Of a stretch of 14,236 nt of DNA, positions 4,050-14,236 are shown piece after piece. The stretch lies in the IMG/VR virus record IMGVR_UViG_3300045116_000511; one strand, written 5' to 3'. The stretch comes from a virus. Within the stretch, counting starts at the first letter, position 1. Each line of letters starts with the position of its first letter. The translations under genes were made by a program, and so were the position numbers. Under the pieces are notes generated by a model. That model made no database searches, was not told where the DNA came from, and saw only the letters and a program-made list of their open reading frames with translations.

Positions 4050-5417
4050 CTACTTCACAGCAGAGGCTACTGGAGTCACAGGCGCAACCGGGCCGGCGGC
4101 TGGTACATCTCGGACAATGCCCATACTCCGCATGAGCCACATGCTCACCAGATTGCCCATCCAATCTTGTTGCCCACCGCTGCCGCCACCCAACATGAGG
4201 GTCTGTGGGGCTTGAATGGCAGCCAGTTTGGCGGCGACCTCCACATCGCGCTTTGCGGCGATCTCAGCAAGCGTTCGTTCCTTCTCAGTGATAGCACCAC
4301 CTTTGGCGATTTTCTCTGATTGTGCCTCAGCAAGTACTCGGATGGCCTTTGCCTCAGCTTCGGCCGTTTGGACTTTGACTTCAGCAGCTTTCTTTTCCAA
4401 TTCGGCAACGGATAGCGCCTGCTGGGCTTTGGTCTCAGCCTCTTTCTTCCCCTGATCAGCAACAGCAACTTTCTGCTGGGCTTCGAGCGTTGCCACTTCC
4501 TTCTGCCGCTGAGCGTTGGTCACAGCAGTCACCTTTTCGACATTCGCTGCGGCTTCTGATTCCGCTGCCTGTCGCTTGCCTTTTTCAACCACCATTAAAC
4601 GCTGTTGCACTTCTTGCTCACGATCTGCCTTGGCTTGCTCGGCCTTCTGGAAAGACTCTTTCTTTGTGGCAAATCGTTCTAAAGTCTGTTTGTCGTAGTT
4701 GGTTGAAGTCACGCTGAATTGCAGCACTTCAAAACCGTATTCTTTCAGTGGGCTGATCTGACCGATCTTGGGTTTGCCCTTTTCGTCACGAATGATTTCT
4801 GTAGCAAAAACCGTGATTGGGTTCCCTTTCTCATCAGTCGCATCATGGAAGGTCTTCTCAATATGTCGCATCTCGTAAATGCCGTTACGCAACATGTCTT
4901 CGACAATCTGGGTAAATTCGGCTTTACGAGCGGATTGATGCTCTGATGAGGACATAAGTGGAGCGGCGGCCTTGCAGCAATTAATCATGTGCGCATGGAC
5001 TGCTGCTGCCATGTTATCCACGCTGCCGCTGAATTCGCGGTGAGCTTTTAGCCTCAATTCTTCAGTGCGAGGTGTGGCAAAGCGGATCATCGTTCCGAGG
5101 CCAGCAGTACCACCATCATTGAAGGTCACACGGTTGGTAGGATCACCTTCCTCCGCATGTCCCTTCTCACCCCCAAATTCATGTTGTACCGCACGTGGAT
5201 AAGTCCAGACATGGGCAAACATCTTCATGTACCAGCCTGGCTCATCCCTTACAGAAACGCTACCAGTTACCGACTGAATAATCTGCCAATCTTGGGCGTT
5301 ATTCAGTCCAAACCCACCAGTCACAAGGACTATCAGGACAATCAGCACAAAGATGCCGAGTCCTCCATAGAAAATGTGCCGCTTGCCAAGTCGAAACTCG
5401 CCAGTGTCTCTTGTCAT
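4050..5417 (-). CDS. SPFH/band-7 domain protein, flotillin-like (N-terminal TM, SPFH core, long Ala/Glu/Lys/Gln coiled coil).
   Basis: From ATG 5417 (SD AAGGAActaagATG): MTRDTGEFRLGKRHIFYGGLGIFVLIVLIVLVTGGFG (TM), then an SPFH-like core, then EA-rich heptads (...AEAEAKAIRVLAEAQSEKIAKGG...) as in flotillin/YqiK-type proteins. TAG stop at 4050-4052. The track's longer form from ATG 5474 adds FCMKGT x2 encoded by the tandem repeat. Confidence 0.85.
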   Translation of the reverse strand: MTRDTGEFRLGKRHIFYGGLGIFVLIVLIVLVTGGFGLNNAQDWQIIQSVTGSVSVRDEPGWYMKMFAHVWTYPRAVQHEFGGEKGHAEEGDPTNRVTFNDGGTAGLGTMIRFATPRTEELRLKAHREFSGSVDNMAAAVHAHMINCCKAAAPLMSSSEHQSARKAEFTQIVEDMLRNGIYEMRHIEKTFHDATDEKGNPITVFATEIIRDEKGKPKIGQISPLKEYGFEVLQFSVTSTNYDKQTLERFATKKESFQKAEQAKADREQEVQQRLMVVEKGKRQAAESEAAANVEKVTAVTNAQRQKEVATLEAQQKVAVADQGKKEAETKAQQALSVAELEKKAAEVKVQTAEAEAKAIRVLAEAQSEKIAKGGAITEKERTLAEIAAKRDVEVAAKLAAIQAPQTLMLGGGSGGQQDWMGNLVSMWLMRSMGIVRDVPAAGPVAPVTPVASAVK

Positions 5418-5421
5418 CTTA

Positions 5422-5457
5422 GTTCCTTTCATGCAGAATGTTCCTTTCATGCAGAAT
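5422..5457. repeat. Perfect tandem direct repeat, 2 x 18 bp (gttcctttcatgcagaat), in the SPFH gene leader.
   Basis: Read directly: 5422-5439 is identical to 5440-5457. On the minus strand each unit reads ATTCTGCATGAAAGGAAC, so it carries an in-frame ATG and an AAGGAA SD-like element. Confidence 0.9.
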
Positions 5458-5482
5458 ATCACACCATGTGACATTACTCTAA

Positions 5483-6531: not shown

Positions 6532-6789
6532 TTCATCAGGCGGTAAATCTACTGAGTAAGTCCCTGGATATTTTTGATTGACCGCGGCCGTAATGGCATC
6601 ATCGCTGTCATTACCGAACGAAACCTCGCCACAGTTTCGGCATTTAGAAATCGGAACTTCTGGAACTGTGATGTCAACCAGCTCGCCTTTTACTCGAACT
6701 TTGAGGGCATAGTTTTCCAGCGTAGCCGGATAAACTTCTTGCTTCAGGCAAGTAACACAACGCTAGGGATACGGCTTCGACTTAGGCAT
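6532..6789 (-). other. In-frame upstream extension of the 6025-6531 ORF encoding a CxxC-x28-CxxC zinc ribbon with no canonical start; an upstream in-frame ATG (6789..6787) is separated from it by an amber TAG (6763-6765).
   Basis: Own translation: ATG CCT AAG TCG AAG CCG TAT CCC TAG | CGT TGT GTT ACT TGC ... reads MPKSKPYP*RCVTCLKQEVYPATLENYALKVRVKGELVDITVPEVPISKCRNCGEVSFGNDSDDAITAAVNQKYPGTYSVDLPPDE-LYVFIIDTD. Between the TAG and the TTG at 6531 there are 77 stop-free codons and no ATG/GTG/TTG. Confidence 0.5.
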
Positions 6790-7786
6790 CTTTCTCAAGA
6801 TAAGAGTCAGATACGATCTTGAGCATCACGCGCCCAATCTCCGCATCATTGCGTTCTTTCTCTGGGATGATCACGCAGCCTTCCCGGACATGATCAGCAC
6901 CGGGCCAGGTACTGCGCCCTTCCGAGAGTGAAAGAGCAATCTTGGCGTCAAACGGCCCTTTGTAGAGCAGAGGCACCCATGCCACTTTCGGGGTGACCAT
7001 CGCATAGGCTTCGTCAAAATCCAACCACTGATTCTGTTTCAGAACAGCAAAAGCGGCAAAAAAGACATCGTTCCTTTTTGCCCCGTACTTGAGCTTCTGG
7101 ACCTGCCCAAAAACTTCGCCGTACAGAATCAGAGTCGGGTGTTCCTTGCACCACTCTCCAATAGCTGGATTTCGGTGGAATGCCATCCACCAGTAGTTCT
7201 TGTCATCTTCAGCCAGCCAGTTGGTCCGCGAGCCGCAGAACTGTTTCCATTCCCCATCCTTGTCCTGGGCGTAGGTATATCTGGCGTTAGCTCCATGAAT
7301 CTTCTCGGTGATTACAACGGGCTCGCCAGCCGTAAACATCTGGAAGTAGCGCTGGTAGCATTCGACATCGAACTTAGGACAATACAGACCCGAAGGCCCA
7401 CCAACAAATAGCCCACCCGAAGACATGGGCAGCGGGGGCTCATATCGCTCAATGCCAAGTTCGGCAATGACGTTAGCGCCCACGGATCGATCCAGCAATT
7501 CCGGGGGCACCGGGATTAGCAGTCCCTGACTGAGCGCCCCCTTGAATCGACGGACTCGAATGCGTTCCTGCGGTTTACCATCTTCGCGCTTCAGAAACGC
7601 AAAAGATGGATTAGAAATTGGCACGAGATAATCCGGTGGGATATAGATCGCCAGATCACCCTCTTTGAAGTCGTCTTTGCCGATACAGCACTGCCAACCC
7701 CAGATGCGGGTAATTGCAAGCCGATCAGCGTTGGCGTGAGGCTCAATTTTACCGATTTGGACAATTTCAATTCGATGTTCGCTCAT
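6782..7786 (-). CDS. ATP-dependent RNA ligase, Rnl2-like nucleotidyltransferase with an N-terminal OB-like domain (Rnl5-type domain order), 334 aa.
   Basis: From ATG 7786 (GGAG 9 nt upstream); the codon at the track start 7807 is TTG. Motif I VVITEKIHGANARY (KxHGxN as in T4 Rnl2), motif III-like LILYGEVFGQ, motif IV-like DVFFAAFAV, motif V-like EGCVIIPEKE. N-terminal RIEIVQIGKIEPHANADRLAITRIWGWQCCIGKDDFKEGDLAIYIPPD resembles a tRNA-binding OB fold. Confidence 0.8.
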   Translation of the reverse strand: MSEHRIEIVQIGKIEPHANADRLAITRIWGWQCCIGKDDFKEGDLAIYIPPDYLVPISNPSFAFLKREDGKPQERIRVRRFKGALSQGLLIPVPPELLDRSVGANVIAELGIERYEPPLPMSSGGLFVGGPSGLYCPKFDVECYQRYFQMFTAGEPVVITEKIHGANARYTYAQDKDGEWKQFCGSRTNWLAEDDKNYWWMAFHRNPAIGEWCKEHPTLILYGEVFGQVQKLKYGAKRNDVFFAAFAVLKQNQWLDFDEAYAMVTPKVAWVPLLYKGPFDAKIALSLSEGRSTWPGADHVREGCVIIPEKERNDAEIGRVMLKIVSDSYLEKDA

Positions 7787-8217
7787 GCGGCATTGCTCCG
7801 TTTCCAAACAACAAACTCATAAAACTGCTGTCTGTTATTAAACTTCCAGCCGAACTTTTTATGAAAACTGATATGACATTTTCGGCACAAGCAAACTCCA
7901 TTGTCTAAGTCCACTCTCAAAGAGGGATTGGCGTGGTAGCTTTCAAGGTGGTGACTCGCTAACTCACCGCCGTGTTTGTTGCATACGACACATCTAAAAC
8001 CATCTCTTTCCTTTATCGCGATTCTCCATGCGCGGAACTCTTCTCTAATACGCCGATCCTGTCTCTCTGAATCGGTGAGTCGCGAATTCCAGGCTGGATT
8101 CTTATCTCCCGTCTGAGATTTCAGTCTTTCGTAATTCCAGCAACCACATGACTGAGTCGTTCCGCCTATAAGCGAATTGCGGAAAACAACGCATACGTTA
8201 CCACATTCTCGCCGACG
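7783..8217 (-). CDS. HNH endonuclease (His-Me finger). The open frame runs from the in-frame TAA at 8218-8220 to a TGA overlapping the RNA-ligase ATG, with no ATG/GTG/TTG before the catalytic core. Candidate ATT start at 8049 with an AGGA SD.
   Basis: Own translation: ...FRAWRIAIKERDGFRCVVCNKHGGELASHHLESYHANPSLRVDLDNGVCLCRKCHISFHKKFGW... (CxxC..HH..N..CxC..CH..H). It is not in the ORF track. The first canonical in-frame start, TTG, lies after the HH dyad. ATT (8049..8047) is preceded by AGGA with 7-nt spacing. A frame-1 ATG at 8194 plus a 1-nt change in the T4 run 8183-8186 would also give a full ORF. Confidence 0.55.
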   Translation of the reverse strand, partial: RRRECGNVCVVFRNSLIGGTTQSCGCWNYERLKSQTGDKNPAWNSRLTDSERQDRRIREEFRAWRIAIKERDGFRCVVCNKHGGELASHHLESYHANPSLRVDLDNGVCLCRKCHISFHKKFGWKFNNRQQFYEFVVWKRSNAA

Positions 8218-8230
8218 TTACGCGCTGTCA

Positions 8231-8497
8231 TCATGGCATCTTGCCCTGCTGAAATTCAGCATAGGTTACCGAGCCACCAGTCGGGCCGACCCCAGTAACA
8301 ATGAAGTTACCAGCCGAGCGACGGATGGTATGAACACCACGCTTACCCTTACGTCGCTCAAAGGGTTTGTACCGAATCTCCTGGCAGCCGCTCCCGTTAC
8401 ATTGGAGGCAGACTACACCAACGCCTGGTGGCTCGGCAAAGCCGCGGTAAATGCCACTTCCCTCACAAGCACCACACTCTGCTTTAACCGTTTCCAT
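8231..8497 (-). CDS. DnaJ-type zinc-finger protein (two CxxCxGxG repeats, one predicted Zn centre), 88 aa.
   Basis: METVKAECGACEGSGIYRGFAEPPGVGVVCLQCNGSGCQEIRY. SD GAGGcggaacATG. Ends in a double stop TGATGA. Confidence 0.65.
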   Translation of the reverse strand: METVKAECGACEGSGIYRGFAEPPGVGVVCLQCNGSGCQEIRYKPFERRKGKRGVHTIRRSAGNFIVTGVGPTGGSVTYAEFQQGKMP

Positions 8498-8909: not shown

Positions 8910-9245
8910 TTATTTCTTCAACACAGTATACGCTGCAATAATCCGTTTGGCTCTTTCATTGGACTCTTTGGTATTGCCACATCTATCTGGGTGGAATCGG
9001 AGCATCAGCATGCGATACGCATGCTTGATTTCGTCCTGAGTCGCATTCGGGCTAACACCAAGAATCACCCACGGTGAATCTGGTTGGCCGGAAAGAATCT
9101 CTTCGGCTTCTTCTCGGCCCATCGCCTCAGAGAAAGCTTGACGCCACTGAGCGGCGCTCCCGGCCGGGCCGACGTAAGTACCGTATGGCGACTGGTCAGT
9201 CCAGACGTTACGCTTTGGTTTATTGGGATCGCGCTGTCGAGGCAT
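8910..9245 (-). CDS. J-domain (DnaJ N-terminal domain) protein, 111 aa, with the J-domain at the C-terminus.
   Basis: WVILGVSPNATQDEIKHAYRMLMLRFHPDRCGNTKESNERAKRIIAAYTVLKK carries the HPD tripeptide and flanking helices. SD GGTGG. First gene downstream of a consensus promoter. Confidence 0.85.
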   Translation of the reverse strand: MPRQRDPNKPKRNVWTDQSPYGTYVGPAGSAAQWRQAFSEAMGREEAEEILSGQPDSPWVILGVSPNATQDEIKHAYRMLMLRFHPDRCGNTKESNERAKRIIAAYTVLKK

Positions 9246-9271
9246 CGTACCACCAATTAGCCGTCATGCGT

Positions 9272-9300
9272 ATAATACCGATTACTGGAAGAATTGTCAA
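9272..9300 (-). promoter_or_regulatory. Consensus sigma70-type promoter (TTGACA, 17-bp spacer, TATTAT) driving the minus-strand cluster that begins with the J-domain gene.
   Basis: Plus-strand tgtcaa at 9295-9300 and ataata at 9272-9277 read on the minus strand as TTGACA-17-TATTAT. The predicted TSS is near 9265 and the start codon is at 9245. Confidence 0.5.
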
Positions 9301-9361
9301 CCACGAATGATAGTAGTGCAGCCAAAGAAAAAAATTTCCCTGAATTTTTCAGAGGGCTGAA

Positions 9362-9390
9362 TTGACAGCACGTAGAATATGTCATATTCT
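9362..9390 (+). promoter_or_regulatory. Divergent plus-strand promoter (TTGACA, 17-bp spacer, TATTCT) whose -10 is embedded in a 17-bp perfect palindrome AGAATAT-gtc-ATATTCT (9374-9390). Operator-like.
   Basis: Read directly: TTGACA 9362-9367, a 17-nt spacer, TATTCT 9385-9390. The inverted repeat has 7-bp arms. An A-tract at 9325-9340 lies between the divergent promoters. Confidence 0.45.
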
Positions 9391-9499
9391 TCCATCGGCG
9401 TGGTAGGATCAACTCGTCGTTGATGCTGCCTTTGTCCTGTCACAAGACAGGCCGGGCTAAGCCCGCAGTGAGTGGAATCCCGACTGTAAAAGGAGAACG

Positions 9500-9616
9500 A
9501 TGATGTGGTTTGTTAATTTTTTTAGCTGGTTCAGCACCGCTGGTACGTTTATTGAGGGAGTCCAGAACTTCTTCGCATGGCTCACCTCGATTTTCAACCA
9601 GATCACCACTGCGTAG
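9500..9616 (+). CDS. Small hydrophobic 38-aa peptide (MMWFVNFFSWFSTAGTFIEGVQNFFAWLTSIFNQITTA). Membrane peptide or type I toxin-like.
   Basis: Strong SD AAGGAG 4 nt before ATG 9500. Double stop TAGTAA. A ~100-nt leader with three hairpins (9408-9424, 9436-9451, 9453-9465). Followed by a strong intrinsic terminator. Below the ORF-track size cutoff. Confidence 0.5.
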   Translation: MMWFVNFFSWFSTAGTFIEGVQNFFAWLTSIFNQITTA

Positions 9617-9628
9617 TAACAGCTGAGC

Positions 9629-9661
9629 AAAAAGGAAGGGCTCAATGCCCTTCCTTTTTCG
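9629..9661. terminator. Bidirectional rho-independent terminator (stem aaaggaagggc / gcccttccttt, loop tcaat, A-run before and T-run after).
   Basis: 9631-9657 forms an 11-bp perfect stem, followed by TTTTT on the plus strand and preceded by AAAAA, so it is also a terminator on the minus strand. Confidence 0.7.
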
Positions 9662-9869
9662 TTCCGTCAAACAAATCATCAGGCCATAGTATCTGCTTAT
9701 CACGCAGCGCGACTACGTCTCGGTAGAGAGACTTTAGAATCTTCACTCTTTCAAGGGCAAGGCCGTCGTGGTTCTTTAGAAGATCAGGTCGCAGAATTAG
9801 AAGTGTTTCGACACTCAGCAAAATTTCGACATTATGAATGCAAGTGGCGAATACGTCGAGTTTATTCAT
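9642..9869 (-). CDS. Hypothetical 75-aa protein whose stop lies inside the terminator hairpin.
   Basis: ORF track with ATG at 9869 and a weak SD. Protein-like composition (MNKLDVFATCIHNVEILLSVETLLILRPDLLKNHDG...). Confidence 0.4.
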   Translation of the reverse strand: MNKLDVFATCIHNVEILLSVETLLILRPDLLKNHDGLALERVKILKSLYRDVVALRDKQILWPDDLFDGTKKEGH

Positions 9870-10021
9870 CTTTTTCGAGCGAAAGAAACCTCGAAATCTT
9901 TAGTTTCTGGTAGAAATTCGCTCAACTCCTATTGTATAATAACACTGTTCTTTGACAACTACAAAAGAGAGCTATTGAGGAGCAAGCTCTGAAGTCTTTA
10001 GCTTCGGAGCAGTTGACTGAG

Positions 10022-10819
10022 TTAGTCCCAATCCGATCCTTGCTCAGTGGGCTTCCGGTCACGCAGCCACCGCTCGTAATCCCAAACATAAATCCCAAGC
10101 TCCCCGGATTTATTCACCATGCCAGTTTGACCTTCAAACCATTTCGAGAACCGCTTCACTTCCTCCGCTGAGTGATGCTCATCCAGCATCGCTTTTGTGA
10201 TGAATTTGATACCAGACTCGGTTTTGTAGAGTTTCTGAGGAATCCTACTCCCAGCAACGATGACCGGTTTTGACTTTTCCTCGCCGTATTTGTACTGGAA
10301 ACTGGGAGAACTCAATCGATCCGGGTCTTCCTTAAATCGAAGCGCCTGCTGCTTCAAAGCGTCGAGCAATTCCGTCTGATGCCCCGGATACAAATGAATC
10401 ACTGCCGGATGCCCATTCTGCGGGATGAAGACCATCGAGGTGCCCCAATATTCCCGAGCACTCTCGCAGGGAATCAGGACCAGCCTCGATCCGCACGCGC
10501 AGTCATCATCACAGCGGGTGATTAACACCGTAGGATGCTTCTTCGCCCACTTGGTCACTTCTTGGATAAGTTCGTGACCTTCCCACTTCCACTGACGACC
10601 AGCGGCTCCACAGGGACAAAACTTTTCAAGGAATCCATGCCAAATCTTGAACAGCTTCAGAGAATTGGCATTCATGCGCTTGCCACGCTCTCGAATAATC
10701 TTGCACTCCGACGCCAGACCAGGCCGGGATACTTGCTCCCCACAGTTACAGCGGAAGGCCATTTCCTTCCCATCTCCGCTGTATGAGCAGAGATTAAACT
10801 GATGTACATGCTTTTTCAT
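10022..10819 (-). CDS. Cys-rich hypothetical 265-aa protein with several CxC/CxxC clusters.
   Basis: FRCNCGE, FCPCGAAG, RCDDDCACGSRLVLIPC. ATG 10819 with an AGAGAGAA SD-like element. Followed 15 nt downstream by the hairpin 9985-10010. Confidence 0.65.
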   Translation of the reverse strand: MKKHVHQFNLCSYSGDGKEMAFRCNCGEQVSRPGLASECKIIRERGKRMNANSLKLFKIWHGFLEKFCPCGAAGRQWKWEGHELIQEVTKWAKKHPTVLITRCDDDCACGSRLVLIPCESAREYWGTSMVFIPQNGHPAVIHLYPGHQTELLDALKQQALRFKEDPDRLSSPSFQYKYGEEKSKPVIVAGSRIPQKLYKTESGIKFITKAMLDEHHSAEEVKRFSKWFEGQTGMVNKSGELGIYVWDYERWLRDRKPTEQGSDWD

Positions 10820-11270
10820 CGGTTCTCTCTGGCATCACTCCGCAGGCAATCCATTCCATCGCCGCATGCAAGGCCGCCTCACTGCTGGGCCAACCGCAGC
10901 CAAGAAACAGATCGCCTTGCCACTTGTGCTGGAGCTTCTCCATATCATAATCGTTGATACACAACCCCCAGGACTTTCGATCATGCTGGTTCAGATAAGC
11001 GTGGGCAGTTCGGTGGTTTTGTGGAACAACACTGCCCAAATGGACCGATTCTTTACCGTTGCAGAATTTATTAGCAATCGGCTCACCTTTGTGCCAAGCA
11101 ATGATACTATTCACCGCCAGAAGAAAGTCGCGCATATTGGCAATGTCAATTTGCAACTGATGCATGCGCCGATCAATCTTCTTGCGCTCTGCTTCCATCG
11201 CTGCAAGCTGAGTGCGAAAAGACTTCGGGTCTTTATGACACTTCTTGATCAGACTTTTCGTAACGCGCAT
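10794..11270 (-). CDS. Hypothetical 158-aa protein (MRVTKSLIKKCHKDPKSFRTQLAAMEAERKK...).
   Basis: The track start at 11279 is TTG. The first ATG at 11270 is preceded by AAGGAttGAGGcgtATG. It overlaps the next gene by 26 nt. The antisense ORF 10866-11411 is Leu-rich and judged spurious. Confidence 0.6.
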   Translation of the reverse strand: MRVTKSLIKKCHKDPKSFRTQLAAMEAERKKIDRRMHQLQIDIANMRDFLLAVNSIIAWHKGEPIANKFCNGKESVHLGSVVPQNHRTAHAYLNQHDRKSWGLCINDYDMEKLQHKWQGDLFLGCGWPSSEAALHAAMEWIACGVMPERTDEKACTSV

Positions 11271-11282
11271 ACGCCTCAATCC

Positions 11283-11399
11283 TTACGCTCGCCACTCTCG
11301 CTGGAAAGCCGTCAGTTGCGGGACGTTGCGACCATACTTGCGGCCATGCAGTCCCATGGCGTCCAGATGCTTGCATTGTCCATGCCGGATACAGATCAT
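11283..11399 (-). pseudogene. Remnant or duplicated copy of the SWIM-gene 3' end (38 codons: MICIRHGQCKHLDAMGLHGRKYGRNVPQLTAFQREWRA*).
   Basis: Own translation. It aligns with residues 74-108 of the 12130-12456 protein (NIRHGKCKHLDAMGLKGRAHGRNAEWIKKLGLRGV*). The DNA core 11353-11390 matches 12197-12234 at 34/38 positions. Its TAA (11283-11285) sits 12 nt upstream of ATG 11270, as a native gene junction would. Confidence 0.5.
11353..11390. repeat. Left copy of a 38-bp core direct repeat (34/38 identical to 12197-12234) flanking the plus-strand HNH gene.
   Basis: cccatggcgtccagatgcttgcattgtccatgccggat versus cccatagcgtcgagatgcttgcattttccatgtcggat. Confidence 0.85.
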
Positions 11400-11426
11400 G
11401 CCTGTTTATAGCCGAAGAAAACCAAA

Positions 11427-12158
11427 TTGTCAATGGTTGGGTATGTTCTAACGAAGAGGATTGTGACGAATTTCGCTGCATATATGTTGATGGAAACCAG
11501 AACGTGCAAAACCTGCGGTATTGTCAAGAACATTCGATCATTCCCCGAGAGATACGCAATAAAGGGAGGCAAGAAATACAGGCGTCACCAGTGCAACAGC
11601 TGTCGTTGCCGACGATACAAACCGCGCTATCGAAAAACTTTTAGAGATATCGCGAAACGATGCAGGGCAAAGTACAATGCAAACAAATCTGAGATGAAAA
11701 AGAAACTAATGGCTGCTGTATGGCAAGAAAAGTGCATTATATGTGGGGAGCCAGACCCCGTCATATTGTGCTTCCACCATCGATCAAAGATCGATAAAAA
11801 ATTCTGCGTTTCCTACGGATTCACACACTCTTATGGTTTTGACACTCTACTGGATGAAGCCAAAAAGTGCGATGTAATATGTCATAATTGCCACGCAAAG
11901 AACCACTCAAACCAGTTGCCAAGCCGCCACAAAGATAGGATATTTGAACACATAGGCGACAACAAATGCAAGACATGCGGTGAAAGTGACGCTAGGACAC
12001 TTTGTTTCCATCACCACGACCCGTCAAAAAAAGAGTTCAAACTATCTTGTAGATTTCGGCGCGGCAGATCATGGGAACAGGTATTATCTGAGGCCAGCAA
12101 ATGTATATTGCTATGTGCCAACTGTCATATCAGACTCCACGCAACCCGAGCTTTTTAA
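11427..12158 (+). CDS. Tandem-HNH nuclease (two CxxCG..FHH..KC..C(H/A)NCH modules) with an N-terminal CxxC..CxxC zinc ribbon. Freestanding homing-endonuclease-like, AT-rich, and the only confident plus-strand protein gene.
   Basis: Module 1: CIICGEPDPVILCFHHRSKIDKKF...EAKKCDVICHNCHAKNH. Module 2: CKTCGESDARTLCFHHHDPSKKEF...EASKCILLCANCHIRLH. N-terminus: CKTCG...CNSCRC. The start is ambiguous: the track start 11427 is TTG, and ATGs occur at 11433, 11484 and 11490. The AAGAGGA at 11453-11459 is not well spaced to any of them. TAA 12156-12158 overlaps the convergent SWIM gene by 29 nt. Confidence 0.7.
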   Translation: MSMVGYVLTKRIVTNFAAYMLMETRTCKTCGIVKNIRSFPERYAIKGGKKYRRHQCNSCRCRRYKPRYRKTFRDIAKRCRAKYNANKSEMKKKLMAAVWQEKCIICGEPDPVILCFHHRSKIDKKFCVSYGFTHSYGFDTLLDEAKKCDVICHNCHAKNHSNQLPSRHKDRIFEHIGDNKCKTCGESDARTLCFHHHDPSKKEFKLSCRFRRGRSWEQVLSEASKCILLCANCHIRLHATRAF

Positions 12159-12456
12159 TCCACTCGGCATTTCGTCCATGCGCTCGCCCTTTGAGCCCCA
12201 TAGCGTCGAGATGCTTGCATTTTCCATGTCGGATGTTTCCTCTACAGCTGCATTTCCAATATCCTGCACCTGGAGACGAATCAAACGAAATCCGGTAAAT
12301 GCTATCACTGCTCTCGGATCGGATGTCGAATCGACATTTGTAGCGAGTGTCATCTGGATGCAGGGCAACTGCGGCACGCTGTGCTGATGCTGGAAGCAGT
12401 TGAATAGAGTTCACTTTTTTCTCCTTTGTTTTGGTCTTCCGCTTTGCTTTAGCCAT
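12130..12456 (-). CDS. SWIM-type zinc-finger protein (CxCx9CxH), 108 aa, with a basic N-terminus.
   Basis: MAKAKRKTKTKEKK... then WKCSCRGNIRHGKCKH. SD AGGAGttgaagaATG. A consensus promoter lies immediately upstream. Confidence 0.65.
   Translation of the reverse strand: MAKAKRKTKTKEKKVNSIQLLPASAQRAAVALHPDDTRYKCRFDIRSESSDSIYRISFDSSPGAGYWKCSCRGNIRHGKCKHLDAMGLKGRAHGRNAEWIKKLGLRGV
12197..12234. repeat. Right copy of the 38-bp core repeat, lying inside the SWIM gene.
   Basis: See 11353-11390. Confidence 0.85.
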
Positions 12457-12470
12457 TCTTCAACTCCTGC

Positions 12471-12499
12471 ATTTTACCACAGGGCCGCCGAAATGTCAA
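12471..12499 (-). promoter_or_regulatory. Consensus sigma70-type promoter (TTGACA, 17-bp spacer, TAAAAT) upstream of the SWIM gene.
   Basis: Plus-strand tgtcaa at 12494-12499 and atttta at 12471-12476 read on the minus strand as TTGACA-17-TAAAAT. The predicted TSS falls within or next to the AGGAG SD, implying a very short leader. Confidence 0.5.
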
Positions 12500-12758
12500 A
12501 CGACTTGGACCTTGTAAATTGCTTTTGAGACGGCTGGCATGCCTATCGCCACCACTTTCTCCTGGCTGGAACGGGATAACCTGGCTGCCGCCGATATTGT
12601 ATCGGTCTGGAATGCGTTTACGTCTACCCATTAGCCGTAATTCTAACATTTTGCCGCTGAATGTCATTGAACTACCACACTCACAAGTGGTGGGGATTCC
12701 CAAACTTCTATGCGACCTTTGGTCGCAAGGGTCTCTGGTGAGCCAGATTCAAGTGGCT

Positions 12759-12787
12759 CATTTGTTGAACATCTAGCTCAACAAATG
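12759..12787. other. Perfect 10-bp stem hairpin (catttgttga / tcaacaaatg, 9-nt loop), one of a cluster of hairpins in a non-coding region.
   Basis: Read directly. Neighbouring hairpins: 12736-12756 (gagcca...tggctc) and 12800-12818 (gctgtctc aaa gagacagc, 8-bp perfect stem). Confidence 0.5.
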
Positions 12788-12913
12788 TTTCGTGACCCTG
12801 CTGTCTCAAAGAGACAGCCAACTGGTCCGAGTGGTTCTCCCTGAATCACGGAAACACGTTTGGATGAGAACATGTAGGAAACCAGTTATGTTATTATACA
12901 CGCTCGCATTCAT

Positions 12914-12940
12914 CCCCGCCCATAAAGGGCGGGGTTTTCT
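12914..12940 (+). terminator. Rho-independent terminator oriented for plus-strand transcription (ccccgccc ataaa gggcgggg TTTT), with no annotated plus-strand gene upstream.
   Basis: 8-bp GC stem, 5-nt loop, T-run 12935-12938. There is no A-run on the other side, so it is unidirectional. Confidence 0.55.
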
Positions 12941-12953
12941 GCGAGCTATCTAT

Positions 12954-12989
12954 AAAAAAGCCCTGTCCCGGTTTGCGCCGAGACAGGGC
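12954..12989 (-). terminator. Rho-independent terminator for the minus-strand SPFH gene that ends at 13012.
   Basis: On the minus strand: stem gccctgtc / gacagggc (8 bp, 14-nt loop) followed by TTTTTT (the reverse complement of aaaaaa at 12954-12959). It lies 22 nt downstream of the TAA at 13012-13014. Confidence 0.65.
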
Positions 12990-13011
12990 GGGATCAGGAG
13001 GGGGACACGAG

Positions 13012-14236
13012 TTAGTCTGTGTCGCTCTCAGTGGACTGGATGCCAGCGCCGAGCCGGTTTACAATGTTCGCCAACGGAGTCCCGTTAAAGACCTTCGTCA
13101 GCACCTCAACCACGCTCTCGCCGCCAATCAGTGACTGGATCGAAATCGCCTTTGCCGCCTTGGTCAGCACATCGTCGCGATTCAGAGCCAGCAGAGCCTC
13201 TGCCATCTTGCCATCGGCAGCTTTGAAGCGACTGATGGTTGATTCGCTCTCTGCCACAAGTTGCCTCAAAGTCAGCTCCAGACGTTTCTGCTCAACGTCA
13301 TGGTCATGACCGTCTTTCTCCACCACTCGCTTCATGTTGGCGTTGTGACGGATGTCCTCGACTACCTCATTGGCTTGAGCCTGCTTTTGCTGTCCCTCAA
13401 CCTTCTTCATGATGGCTTCGAGATTCTGCGCCTCGACTTCCATTTCCTTACGCAGAATCTCTTGTTCTGTGGACAGCTGCTGTTTGCGGGTATCCGCAGT
13501 CGCCACATTGACTTGCTGGTTCAGTTTCTCCTGCTCCAGCTTGCCCGACACATTACGCCGAGCATTCTGCAAGTCAATGTTGGCTTTCACCGCCGCAAAC
13601 TGCGCCGACATGAGCAGATTTGCGACGTTCTGGTCAGCAATTGTGAAACCCAGGACTTCGACATCCTGGACGATCATGCCGTTTTCCTTGAAAGGCATGC
13701 CCTTGCGGACGCCCTCGACCGAGTGGCCCAGAATGGCGTCACGAATGATCGGGACGTGATTAGCATAGAACTCTTCGATTGTGTGAGTCTTGACCACACC
13801 TTTGAGGACCGAGCGGACGTGATCGCAAAGCAGCTTGACGTAGTTCTCGACTTCAAACCACTTGTCCGGCTCACCGTCGAAGTTAACGAGCAGCGAAATC
13901 TTCACGGAGACCGAAACGTGATCGCTGGTCTCGACATCGATGATGTCAGAAACTTTGTTGTTGCGCGTCCGCAAGTAAACAGTGCGCTCCAACTTGTCGG
14001 TATTCTTCGGCTTGCCTGTTGACAGTTCCAGCACTTCCAGTGACTCGTCGTAGTCAAGCAGAATCGTAGTCGGACCCTGCTCAACGCGCCGACCACCTTT
14101 CTTGTCTACCACCATGACGGCATACCCTGTCCACACGTTGATGGTGGGGACGCCATCATATTTGGTATCCAAGGTGATCGAGCGGGGCTGCGTATACGAC
14201 GTACCACGCTTGATTGTATCTGCTGCGGATAGTTGG
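13012..14236 (-). CDS. Second SPFH/band-7 domain protein (C-terminal >400 aa); the 5' end lies beyond the window.
   Basis: The track 'start' at 14172 is TTG and the frame stays open to the window edge (..QLSAADTIKRGTSYTQPRSITLDTKYDGVPTINVWTGYAVMVVDKKGG..). SPFH-like core (...VPIIRDAILGHSVEGVRKGMPFKENGMIVQDVEVLGFTIADQNVANLLMSAQFAAVKANIDLQNARR...), then a Gln/Glu/Lys-rich coiled coil. TAA at 13012-13014. Confidence 0.8.
   Translation of the reverse strand, partial: QLSAADTIKRGTSYTQPRSITLDTKYDGVPTINVWTGYAVMVVDKKGGRRVEQGPTTILLDYDESLEVLELSTGKPKNTDKLERTVYLRTRNNKVSDIIDVETSDHVSVSVKISLLVNFDGEPDKWFEVENYVKLLCDHVRSVLKGVVKTHTIEEFYANHVPIIRDAILGHSVEGVRKGMPFKENGMIVQDVEVLGFTIADQNVANLLMSAQFAAVKANIDLQNARRNVSGKLEQEKLNQQVNVATADTRKQQLSTEQEILRKEMEVEAQNLEAIMKKVEGQQKQAQANEVVEDIRHNANMKRVVEKDGHDHDVEQKRLELTLRQLVAESESTISRFKAADGKMAEALLALNRDDVLTKAAKAISIQSLIGGESVVEVLTKVFNGTPLANIVNRLGAGIQSTESDTD

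Follow-up and report, generated by a model that had tools for sequence, protein, structure and literature searches.

How a gene for an HNH endonuclease came to lie, on the opposite strand, between two copies of the 3' end of the same small zinc-finger gene is the question raised by the locus described here. The locus belongs to IMG/VR record IMGVR_UViG_3300045116_000511, a complete metagenomic contig of 14,236 bp from an uncultured phage (the whole contig is called the window below), in which nearly all the long open reading frames (ORFs) are on the minus strand. Along that strand, a SWIM-like zinc-finger gene (12456-12130) is followed by the antisense HNH ORF, by an ORF of 38 codons (11399-11283) that repeats the end of the SWIM gene, by a spacer of 12 nt, and by the ATG of a gene for a 158-aa protein (11270-10794). 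The repeat within the 38-codon ORF is called copy A, and the corresponding end of the intact SWIM gene copy B. The answer that we favour, with moderate confidence, is that a free-standing homing endonuclease gene (HEG) appears to have invaded this locus, brought a foreign SWIM allele with it, and left the 3' end of the resident allele behind.

The arrangement is real, as an earlier note made from the sequence alone had observed. The ORFs at 11427-12158 (plus strand) and at 12130-12456, 11283-11399, and 10794-11279 (minus strand) are all present, with translations that agree with those given there. A repeat search of the window recovered a direct repeat of 65 nt (11326-11390 versus 12170-12234; 77% identity, 844-nt spacing), so that two copies of the SWIM 3' end do bracket the HNH gene, and the last 38 nt of this alignment hold the 34 identical positions that had been claimed. 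When the shared core was aligned by codons, 50 of 66 nt were identical, while 200 shuffles of one copy gave a mean of 29.7 (standard deviation 1.4, maximum 34); the core peptide common to both copies is IRHG(Q/K)CKHLDAMGL(H/K)GR(KY/AH)GRN. The two stop codons, at 12156-12158 for the HNH gene and at 12130-12132 for the SWIM gene, define a convergent 3'-end overlap of 29 nt (12130-12158), the length reported in the earlier note, which was also right that the HNH gene is AT-rich relative to its surroundings (GC 0.44, with 0.49-0.54 in the neighbouring genes). Furthermore, a 1,241-bp contig from a different sequencing run and sample (L117) is 100% identical to window positions 10940-12180, and the joint between the 158-aa gene, the remnant, and the HNH gene is thus no assembly artefact. 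A megablast search of positions 10000-13000 against 50,697 phage records gave no match, and no Rfam family or tRNA was detected in the window.

The nature of the two copies emerges from the differences between them. Ten of the 22 core codons differ synonymously only and four non-synonymously. By the Nei-Gojobori method, there are 10 synonymous differences over 15.3 sites and 6 non-synonymous differences over 50.7 sites (pS 0.65, pN 0.12, omega 0.08; Fisher p = 6.7e-5), a pattern from which the copies are judged to have diverged under purifying selection. For a copy drifting freely in situ, an omega of at least about 0.5 would be expected; the probability of the observed split is 0.03-0.04 with an omega of 0.5 and 9e-4 under neutrality, and these values are conservative because the synonymous sites are near saturation. 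Copy A aligns with the C-terminal core of the SWIM-like family and keeps every invariant and nearly invariant family residue. Past codon 22, the tails of the two copies share no similarity: that of copy B (AEWIKKLGLRGV) conforms to the majority "EW..KL" tail, and that of copy A (VPQLTAFQREWRA) aligns with the tail of the homologue P0027 (LPEYRSLKRTK). The best matches also differ, being P0001 for the intact SWIM gene (70%) and P0027 for copy A (66%). On these sequence criteria, the copies are alleles of different SWIM clades and not a duplication that has since decayed. The earlier suggestion that about 117 bp of target were duplicated and then diverged is not supported, given the omega value, the invariant residues kept, the unrelated tails, and the different clades.

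Copy A is a remnant, shorter than first described. The first codon homologous to the family is that for Cys at 11391-11393 (CIRHGQCKHL, as in P0008, P0025, and P0027), so the remnant covers 11283-11393 on the minus strand, that is, 36 codons (CIRHGQCKHL...REWRA) and a TAA stop. The remnant of 38 codons at 11283-11399 proposed in the earlier note was therefore correct as a remnant and not in its extent, its first codons being junction sequence. The ATG at 11397-11399 is part of this junction sequence; it has no preceding Shine-Dalgarno (SD) sequence, there is an in-frame TAA three codons upstream, and copy A is probably untranslated. In tblastn searches with the family proteins, the best match to the copy A region was that of P0027 residues 59-90 (66% over 32 residues, E = 6.5e-11); each sequence matching copy A was the C-terminus of a full-length SWIM gene, and no stand-alone homologue was seen.

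The two sides of the remnant look different. Downstream, as can be read directly from the sequence, the TAA is followed by a 12-nt spacer, GGATTGAGGCGT (11271-11282, minus strand), which contains a GAGG SD, and then by the ATG at 11270. This is the native coupling distance that had been noticed before, and it looks as if copy A and the downstream gene have retained their native stop-SD-ATG junction. That gene (10794-11270, minus strand) marks the resident side of the junction and encodes a 158-aa ORFan, whose sole homologue among 5.8 billion proteins is itself; it has no relative in the viral contigs and no Pfam, PHROG, or NCBIfam match. The exact HEG-minus allele, with the SWIM gene directly abutting the 10794-11270 gene, was not found through either the viral contigs or the 5.8 billion proteins. 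On the other side, SWIM homology stops at 11393 and the joint with the HNH 5' flank begins (11394-11489, plus strand); this flank contains a degenerate SD-like box, AAGAGGATT (11453-11461), 28 nt before the HNH ATG.

To decide which copy is resident and which is imported, three independent lines were considered, each modest alone. The first is lineage. Across 37 family members, similarity to the N-terminal 73 residues of the window SWIM protein rises with similarity to copy B (Spearman 0.63, p = 3e-5), with no such relation for copy A (0.09); this indicates that the intact SWIM gene has a single ancestry throughout, with no hybrid joint at the boundary of the repeat. The second is composition. 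Copy A, with a third-position GC content (GC3) of 0.66 and a third-position A content (A3) of 0.17, falls within the range of the other contig genes (GC3 0.49-0.68, A3 0.12-0.23), and the N-terminal part of the SWIM gene (GC3 0.43, A3 0.29), copy B (0.53, 0.28), and the HNH gene (0.48, 0.31) share a bias for A-ending codons. Coherently, GC content is 0.42-0.50 across 11400-12900 and 0.51-0.58 on both sides; this lower-GC island (11394 to about 12900, with an imprecise right limit), which comprises the HNH gene, the SWIM gene, and the non-coding stretch upstream of it, would be the imported segment. The third is the neighbouring DnaJ gene (8910-9245), whose product has its nearest relative in L118/L119, the P0027-bearing phage (105 bits, versus 87 for the DnaJ of the P0001 phage). 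Together with the native junction, these lines suggest that copy A is probably the stranded end of the resident SWIM gene, and that the intact SWIM gene arrived together with the HNH gene. The earlier note had allowed that a related phage might have supplied a variant allele, and this fits; the evidence goes further, in that the whole intact SWIM gene, and not only its last 35 codons, was apparently imported.

The intact gene (12130-12456, minus strand) encodes 108 aa, of which copy B is approximately the last 36 codons (12130-12240). It has 31 homologues with up to 70% identity on contigs of uncultured phages of 100-500 kb, and the proteins of the family are about 90-110 aa long; in the annotated phage collection, it matches a single record, from an uncultured 595-kb phage, and an exact-sequence look-up of the 108-aa protein returned no record. 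The protein carries the CxCxnCxH signature of the SWIM zinc finger (PF04434) as C69-S-C71-x8-C80-K-H82; among 33 sequences, C80 and H82 never vary, and the conservation of C69 and C71 is 90% or higher. The Pfam SWIM profile gives 11.8 bits (E = 0.18) for the window protein, below the gathering cut-off of 19.6, and is the commonest sub-threshold family among the members (16 of 33, best E = 0.0032). The name "SWIM zinc-finger gene" used earlier is thus borne out by the motif and not by the Pfam threshold, and we say "SWIM-like" because the label is based on the CxCx8CxH motif and sub-threshold Pfam matches only. NCBIfam gave no match for the protein. The structure model, a confident one (pLDDT 88.6), had no PDB match with E < 1 in Foldseek. 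Fifteen nucleotides upstream of the SWIM start, there is a candidate sigma-70-like promoter with an extended TG (TTGACA-17-TAAAAT, 12471-12499, minus strand; 11 of 12 consensus positions, a pattern match only). The 555 bp upstream of the gene (12457-13011) have no convincing ORFs and no Rfam match; they contain a second sigma-70-like promoter match (12667-12640, minus strand) and back-to-back terminator-like hairpins (12914-12934, plus strand; 12989-12960, minus strand), and their lower GC suggests that they are part of the imported island.

The HNH gene (11490-12158, plus strand) is predicted to encode a free-standing endonuclease of 222 aa. Its ORF opens at 11427 and the JGI start is at 11433; since the homologues begin METRTCK, the start is most likely the ATG at 11490. 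Of the gene placed at 11427-12158 in the earlier note, the tandem-HNH ORF is retained and the start most likely is not. The protein opens with a Cys4 zinc ribbon (aa 6-38, 11505-11603), followed by two HNH modules (aa 82-139, 11733-11906; aa 160-217, 11967-12140). Both modules read C-x2-C ... C-F-H-H ... C-x2-C-H-x3-H, with an Asn before the CH, and thus contain the ββα-Me catalytic motif (the His of FHH, the Asn, the distal His, and the CxxC zinc ligands); the positions invariant among the closest relatives are C82, C85, C94, F95, H96, H97, C127, C131, N133, C134, H135, and H139. The protein matches PHROG 2255, "HNH endonuclease" (E = 9.8e-38, in two stretches), PHROG 3106 (E = 1.5e-26), and PHROG 35854 (E = 1.8e-15), and more weakly (E about 1e-5) PHROG families labelled "endonuclease VII". 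By tblastn, homologues with 28-45% identity, mostly annotated as HNH endonuclease or endonuclease VII, were found in 280 isolated phage genomes from many host groups. Pfam and NCBIfam gave no match for the window protein (PF01844 was touched by one of nine relatives, E = 0.023), a scan of the viral contigs with the HNH alignment found nothing, a PDB sequence search returned chance matches only, and a Foldseek comparison of the model with the PDB gave nothing significant.

The association between this HNH lineage and the SWIM gene is not limited to the window. The nearest HNH proteins among the 5.8 billion are P0034, with tandem modules (38% identity), and P0035 and P0036, with a single module (47-48%); all three genes run opposite to the genes around them, and each overlaps a SWIM homologue at its 3' end. 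The HNH matches ranked 1, 3, 5, and 8 in the metagenome scan (L037, L039/L041, and L044) likewise lie antisense over a SWIM 3' end. In total, there are seven HEG-plus lineages (the window, L008, L009, L010-13, L037, L039/41, and L044); the overlap is 11-78 nt in the six other than the window, and identity between the SWIM proteins of the seven can be as low as 35-57%. The gene on the 5' side of the HNH gene differs per locus, being DnaJ, various ORFans, or, in the window, copy A. Conversely, about 25 SWIM loci have no HNH gene; in these, DnaJ comes after the SWIM gene, with nothing in between or with 0.1-2.6 kb of unrelated genes. The five members sampled from the window's SWIM clade (P0001, P0003, P0004, P0005, and P0013) are HNH-free without exception. 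Sporadic presence at a fixed site is what marks a site-specific mobile nuclease gene. The earlier reading of the SWIM 3' end as a homing-endonuclease footprint is thus strengthened by the recurrent antisense position in six other lineages and by the HNH-free loci; the allele for which it proposed to look, with SWIM abutting the 10794-11270 gene, was not found.

Some features of other loci concern the HNH genes themselves. The HNH leaders of L009 (4955-5015), L010 (1115-1175), and L039 (2955-3015) have a perfect SD-like AAAAAGGAGGA 26-27 nt before the ATG and no adjacent SD. In L009 and L010, an AUUUCCA just after this box pairs with the start-codon region AUGGAAA in a hairpin, whose inner stem differs between the two loci yet stays paired (z = -2.46 for L009); this leader may be a split ribosome-binding site or a translational gate for the nuclease. 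A hairpin of this type was rejected for the window HNH flank, where the box is degenerate and there is no significant fold (z = +0.84). In addition, a tandem-module HNH relative with 35% identity (L038:739-1431, L040:2986-3678) is antisense and overlaps the 3' end of an unrelated convergent gene for a 270-aa protein by 32 nt, the same antisense 3'-overlap habit as in the SWIM-linked HNH genes with a different target gene.

A series of events that could have produced the locus is the following. In an ancestor of the window phage, the resident allele would have been a P0027-like SWIM gene directly coupled to the 158-aa gene. A co-infecting HEG-carrying relative, with its own SWIM and HNH genes, would have supplied the enzyme that broke the resident SWIM gene, putatively near codon G73/N74, where the CxC half of the conserved zinc-finger core meets the CxH half. 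Repair would then have copied the donor SWIM allele and the HNH gene. On the near side, the replacement would have taken in the whole SWIM gene and probably reached the non-coding stretch before it; the far end would have been joined illegitimately, without homology, as the donor would have had no homologue of the downstream ORFan genes and the SWIM 3' ends are only about 76% identical. In this way, the resident 5' part would have been replaced by the donor gene and the resident 3' end (copy A, 11283-11393) stranded beside the HNH 5' flank, the overall process being an intronless homing with one-sided homology.

Some points weigh against this explanation. The position of the putative break is deduced only from where the homology of the remnant ends. 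The codon-composition and DnaJ arguments use short sequences (35-108 codons), with modest margins. Neither an HEG-minus allele of the window phage nor a donor was found, the nearest SWIM proteins being 70% and the nearest HNH proteins 38-50% identical, and since all the sampled SWIM members of the window clade are HEG-minus, a donor with a P0001-like SWIM gene and this HNH gene is hypothetical. Finally, tblastn found no extra SWIM remnant at the other six HEG-plus loci, which makes the duplication in the window a one-off.

The same lack of remnants agrees with recombination without homing, an explanation that we regard as unlikely. Here, two divergent phages would have been joined illegitimately inside the SWIM gene, with the HNH gene as a passenger, a moron-like cassette that had long been beside SWIM in the other parent, and the enzyme would not be the cause. 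The interval between SWIM and DnaJ is indeed a hypervariable mosaic with 0-2.6 kb of unrelated genes, and the lineage discordance within the locus shows recombination, not what caused it. On the other hand, the joint is about 100 nt from the HNH start and inside the very gene to which this HNH lineage is tied in seven lineages; moreover, it falls in the most conserved segment of the SWIM gene, as expected for a site-specific break and otherwise only by coincidence.

Homing of an HEG also has to be compared with an ancient pair of tandem SWIM paralogues, in which the HNH gene would have been inserted after the first and the second would have lost its 5' two-thirds. The low omega is also expected of old paralogues. 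Nevertheless, we consider this history quite improbable: no second SWIM gene was seen at any of about 35 other loci, long-resident copies should share a codon composition while copy A and the intact gene differ, and an extra deletion, ending by chance in the conserved core, would be needed. The two SWIM modules carried in tandem by phage L028 could seem a precedent, and were rejected as support since they are fused in one ORF, hardly differ from one another, and come from a distant subfamily.

An in-situ duplication of about 110 bp of the SWIM 3' end upon insertion of the HNH gene, with subsequent drift of the unused copy, would account for the repeat-insert-repeat geometry, which resembles a long target duplication. 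It is very improbable in view of the comparison above: omega is 0.08 and not the value of about 0.5 or higher expected for a decaying copy, copy A has all the invariant residues and an open frame, the tails are dissimilar, with that of copy A matching another clade's, and the nearest relatives differ. That copy A is an independent functional gene, as its ATG-initiated 38-codon ORF could suggest, or that the arrangement is an assembly chimera is hardly credible, given the missing SD, the upstream in-frame stop, the three initial codons of junction sequence, and the lack of stand-alone homologues by tblastn on the one hand, and the identical independent assembly L117 over 10940-12180 on the other.

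The surroundings of the locus are variable. The SWIM-to-DnaJ interval (window 9246-11282; L014, L019-L024, L122, and L123) is a hotspot with 0 to 2.6 kb of unrelated, mostly ORFan genes, and the DnaJ J-domain protein (8910-9245, minus strand) is the conserved downstream partner of SWIM across the phage group. In the window, the interval contains the 158-aa ORFan, a 265-aa ORFan (no Pfam or NCBIfam match), and a 75-aa ORF (9642-9869), which has a promoter-like TTGTCA...TATTAT of its own and, at about 9625-9655, the terminator-like hairpin GGAAGGGCATTGAGCCCTTCCTTTTT. A 38-aa ORF between SWIM and DnaJ in L006/L007 was considered as a further remnant and rejected, as it encodes an unrelated hydrophobic peptide. 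The tandem modules of L028 (2560-3300) are very similar to each other and form a single protein of a 332-kb phage contig. Other, unrelated HNH genes are present near SWIM at HEG-minus loci: in L002/L003 (4383-4736; PF01844/PF14279), 1.3 kb upstream of SWIM, and in L006 (6730-7029) and L007 (1029-1328) (PF13392, HNH_3), directly after DnaJ. The SWIM neighbourhood seems to attract nuclease genes.

Elsewhere in the window, the minus strand carries genes for a 386-aa protein with a Major Vault Protein shoulder (13012-14172; PF11978, E = 5e-25) and a vault repeat (PF17795), and for a 474-aa protein that matches SPFH/Band 7 weakly and also matches PHROG 11908 (4050-5474); the vault-type and SPFH-like proteins are unusual cargo for a phage contig. 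An RNA ligase (6782-7807; PF09414 and a PHA02142 OB fold) and an 88-aa CxxC-rich protein with weak PHROG matches (8231-8497) are also encoded on this strand. Positions 1-1266 have no long minus-strand ORFs, and their plus-strand ORFs (362-658, 98 aa; 807-1046, 79 aa) have no family matches; the description of the HNH gene in the earlier note as the only plus-strand protein gene is therefore tentative.

If a nuclease gene did invade, the locus offers a clean, datable-looking snapshot of a selfish gene moving between distantly related large phages. The old and new ends of the target gene stand side by side, so that the sequence itself reveals the breakpoint and, with it, the likely region of cleavage; the locus thereby gives a concrete, testable enzyme-target pair, and it suggests that mosaic boundaries in huge-phage genomes can be nuclease-driven. 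A more speculative idea, which we think rather unlikely, is that the conserved convergent overlap could be an adaptation of the HNH lineage and not an accident of insertion, a style of "antisense-anchored" free-standing HEG in huge phages. If so, the 3' end of the HNH gene would be anchored in the coding sequence of its target and a precise loss of the element would damage the host gene; alternatively, the benefit would be that antisense transcription couples the expression of nuclease and target. The leaders of L009 and L010, in which an SD plus a hairpin would sequester the start codon, would then be part of this style.

Finally, we compared the locus with known systems. Phage free-standing homing endonucleases move by intronless homing, as described for SegF and SegG of T4 and for the HNH-type MobE (PMC2988022; MobE, PMC2790892; scheme, PMC12724721). 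As in these systems, the window has a stand-alone nuclease gene of the kind found between or at the ends of phage genes, sporadic at a fixed locus among relatives; an enzyme of this kind should cut alleles that lack the HEG close to the insertion point, and its gene should spread by repair with co-conversion of the flanks, and the SWIM allele flanking the window gene appears to be co-converted. Three traits of an HEG are present, namely the presence/absence polymorphism of the locus, the fixed association with a target gene, and the foreign flanking DNA, the last with modest margins. The differences are that the window protein, with its zinc ribbon and two tandem Cys4-type HNH modules, has no sequence relationship with the Mob and Seg enzymes, that its lineage is antisense with the stop codon inside the target gene at seven of seven loci, that a remnant of the target gene was left at the window locus, and that nuclease activity here is predicted. 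F-CphI, a homing enzyme with an endonuclease VII/HNH motif (PMC6083498), is likewise a phage free-standing ββα-Me nuclease that targets a conserved gene, a resemblance by PHROG labels only.

In the "HEG islands" of ICP1 and other phages, nuclease genes are found at the boundaries of genetic exchange (PMC10448857), and the window HEG is exactly at the boundary between segments of different ancestry. Those islands exceed 10 kb and are flanked by T5orf172 and IPA-HNH HEGs, while the window island measures about 1.5 kb and contains one HNH gene only. In the phage literature available as full text, with incomplete coverage, we found no description of such a remnant of a target-gene end, and two further papers (PMC4162613, PMC2248197) have no bearing on 3'-end duplication by HEGs. 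On the favoured reading, the locus is a well-preserved scar of HEG invasion by a mechanism already established, and it changes no concept; an HNH lineage tied to a small zinc-finger gene of uncultured huge phages is previously undescribed.

The closest parallel comes from fungal mitochondria, where mobile endonuclease ORFs (mORFs) swap the C-termini of genes: atp6 in Allomyces macrogynus; atp6, atp9, cox2, and nad3 in Glomus sp.; atp9 in Rhizopus; and cox2 in Mortierella (PMC3630166). There, the two copies have 64-81% nucleotide identity with mostly synonymous differences, and the native remnant groups with the relatives of the host while the inserted copy groups elsewhere (PMC3630166). The window shows the same order of gene core, foreign C-terminus, endonuclease ORF, and native C-terminus remnant; its copies are 76% identical with an omega of 0.08, and its remnant is nearest to P0027, whose phage has the nearest DnaJ. 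The mORFs encode LAGLIDADG or GIY-YIG enzymes and are co-oriented with the gene, often in frame, whereas the window enzyme is of the HNH type, antisense, and in a phage; furthermore, the whole gene, beyond its C-terminus, seems to have been replaced. The window element would work like a mORF-type C-terminal swap, without being a member of the mORF family.

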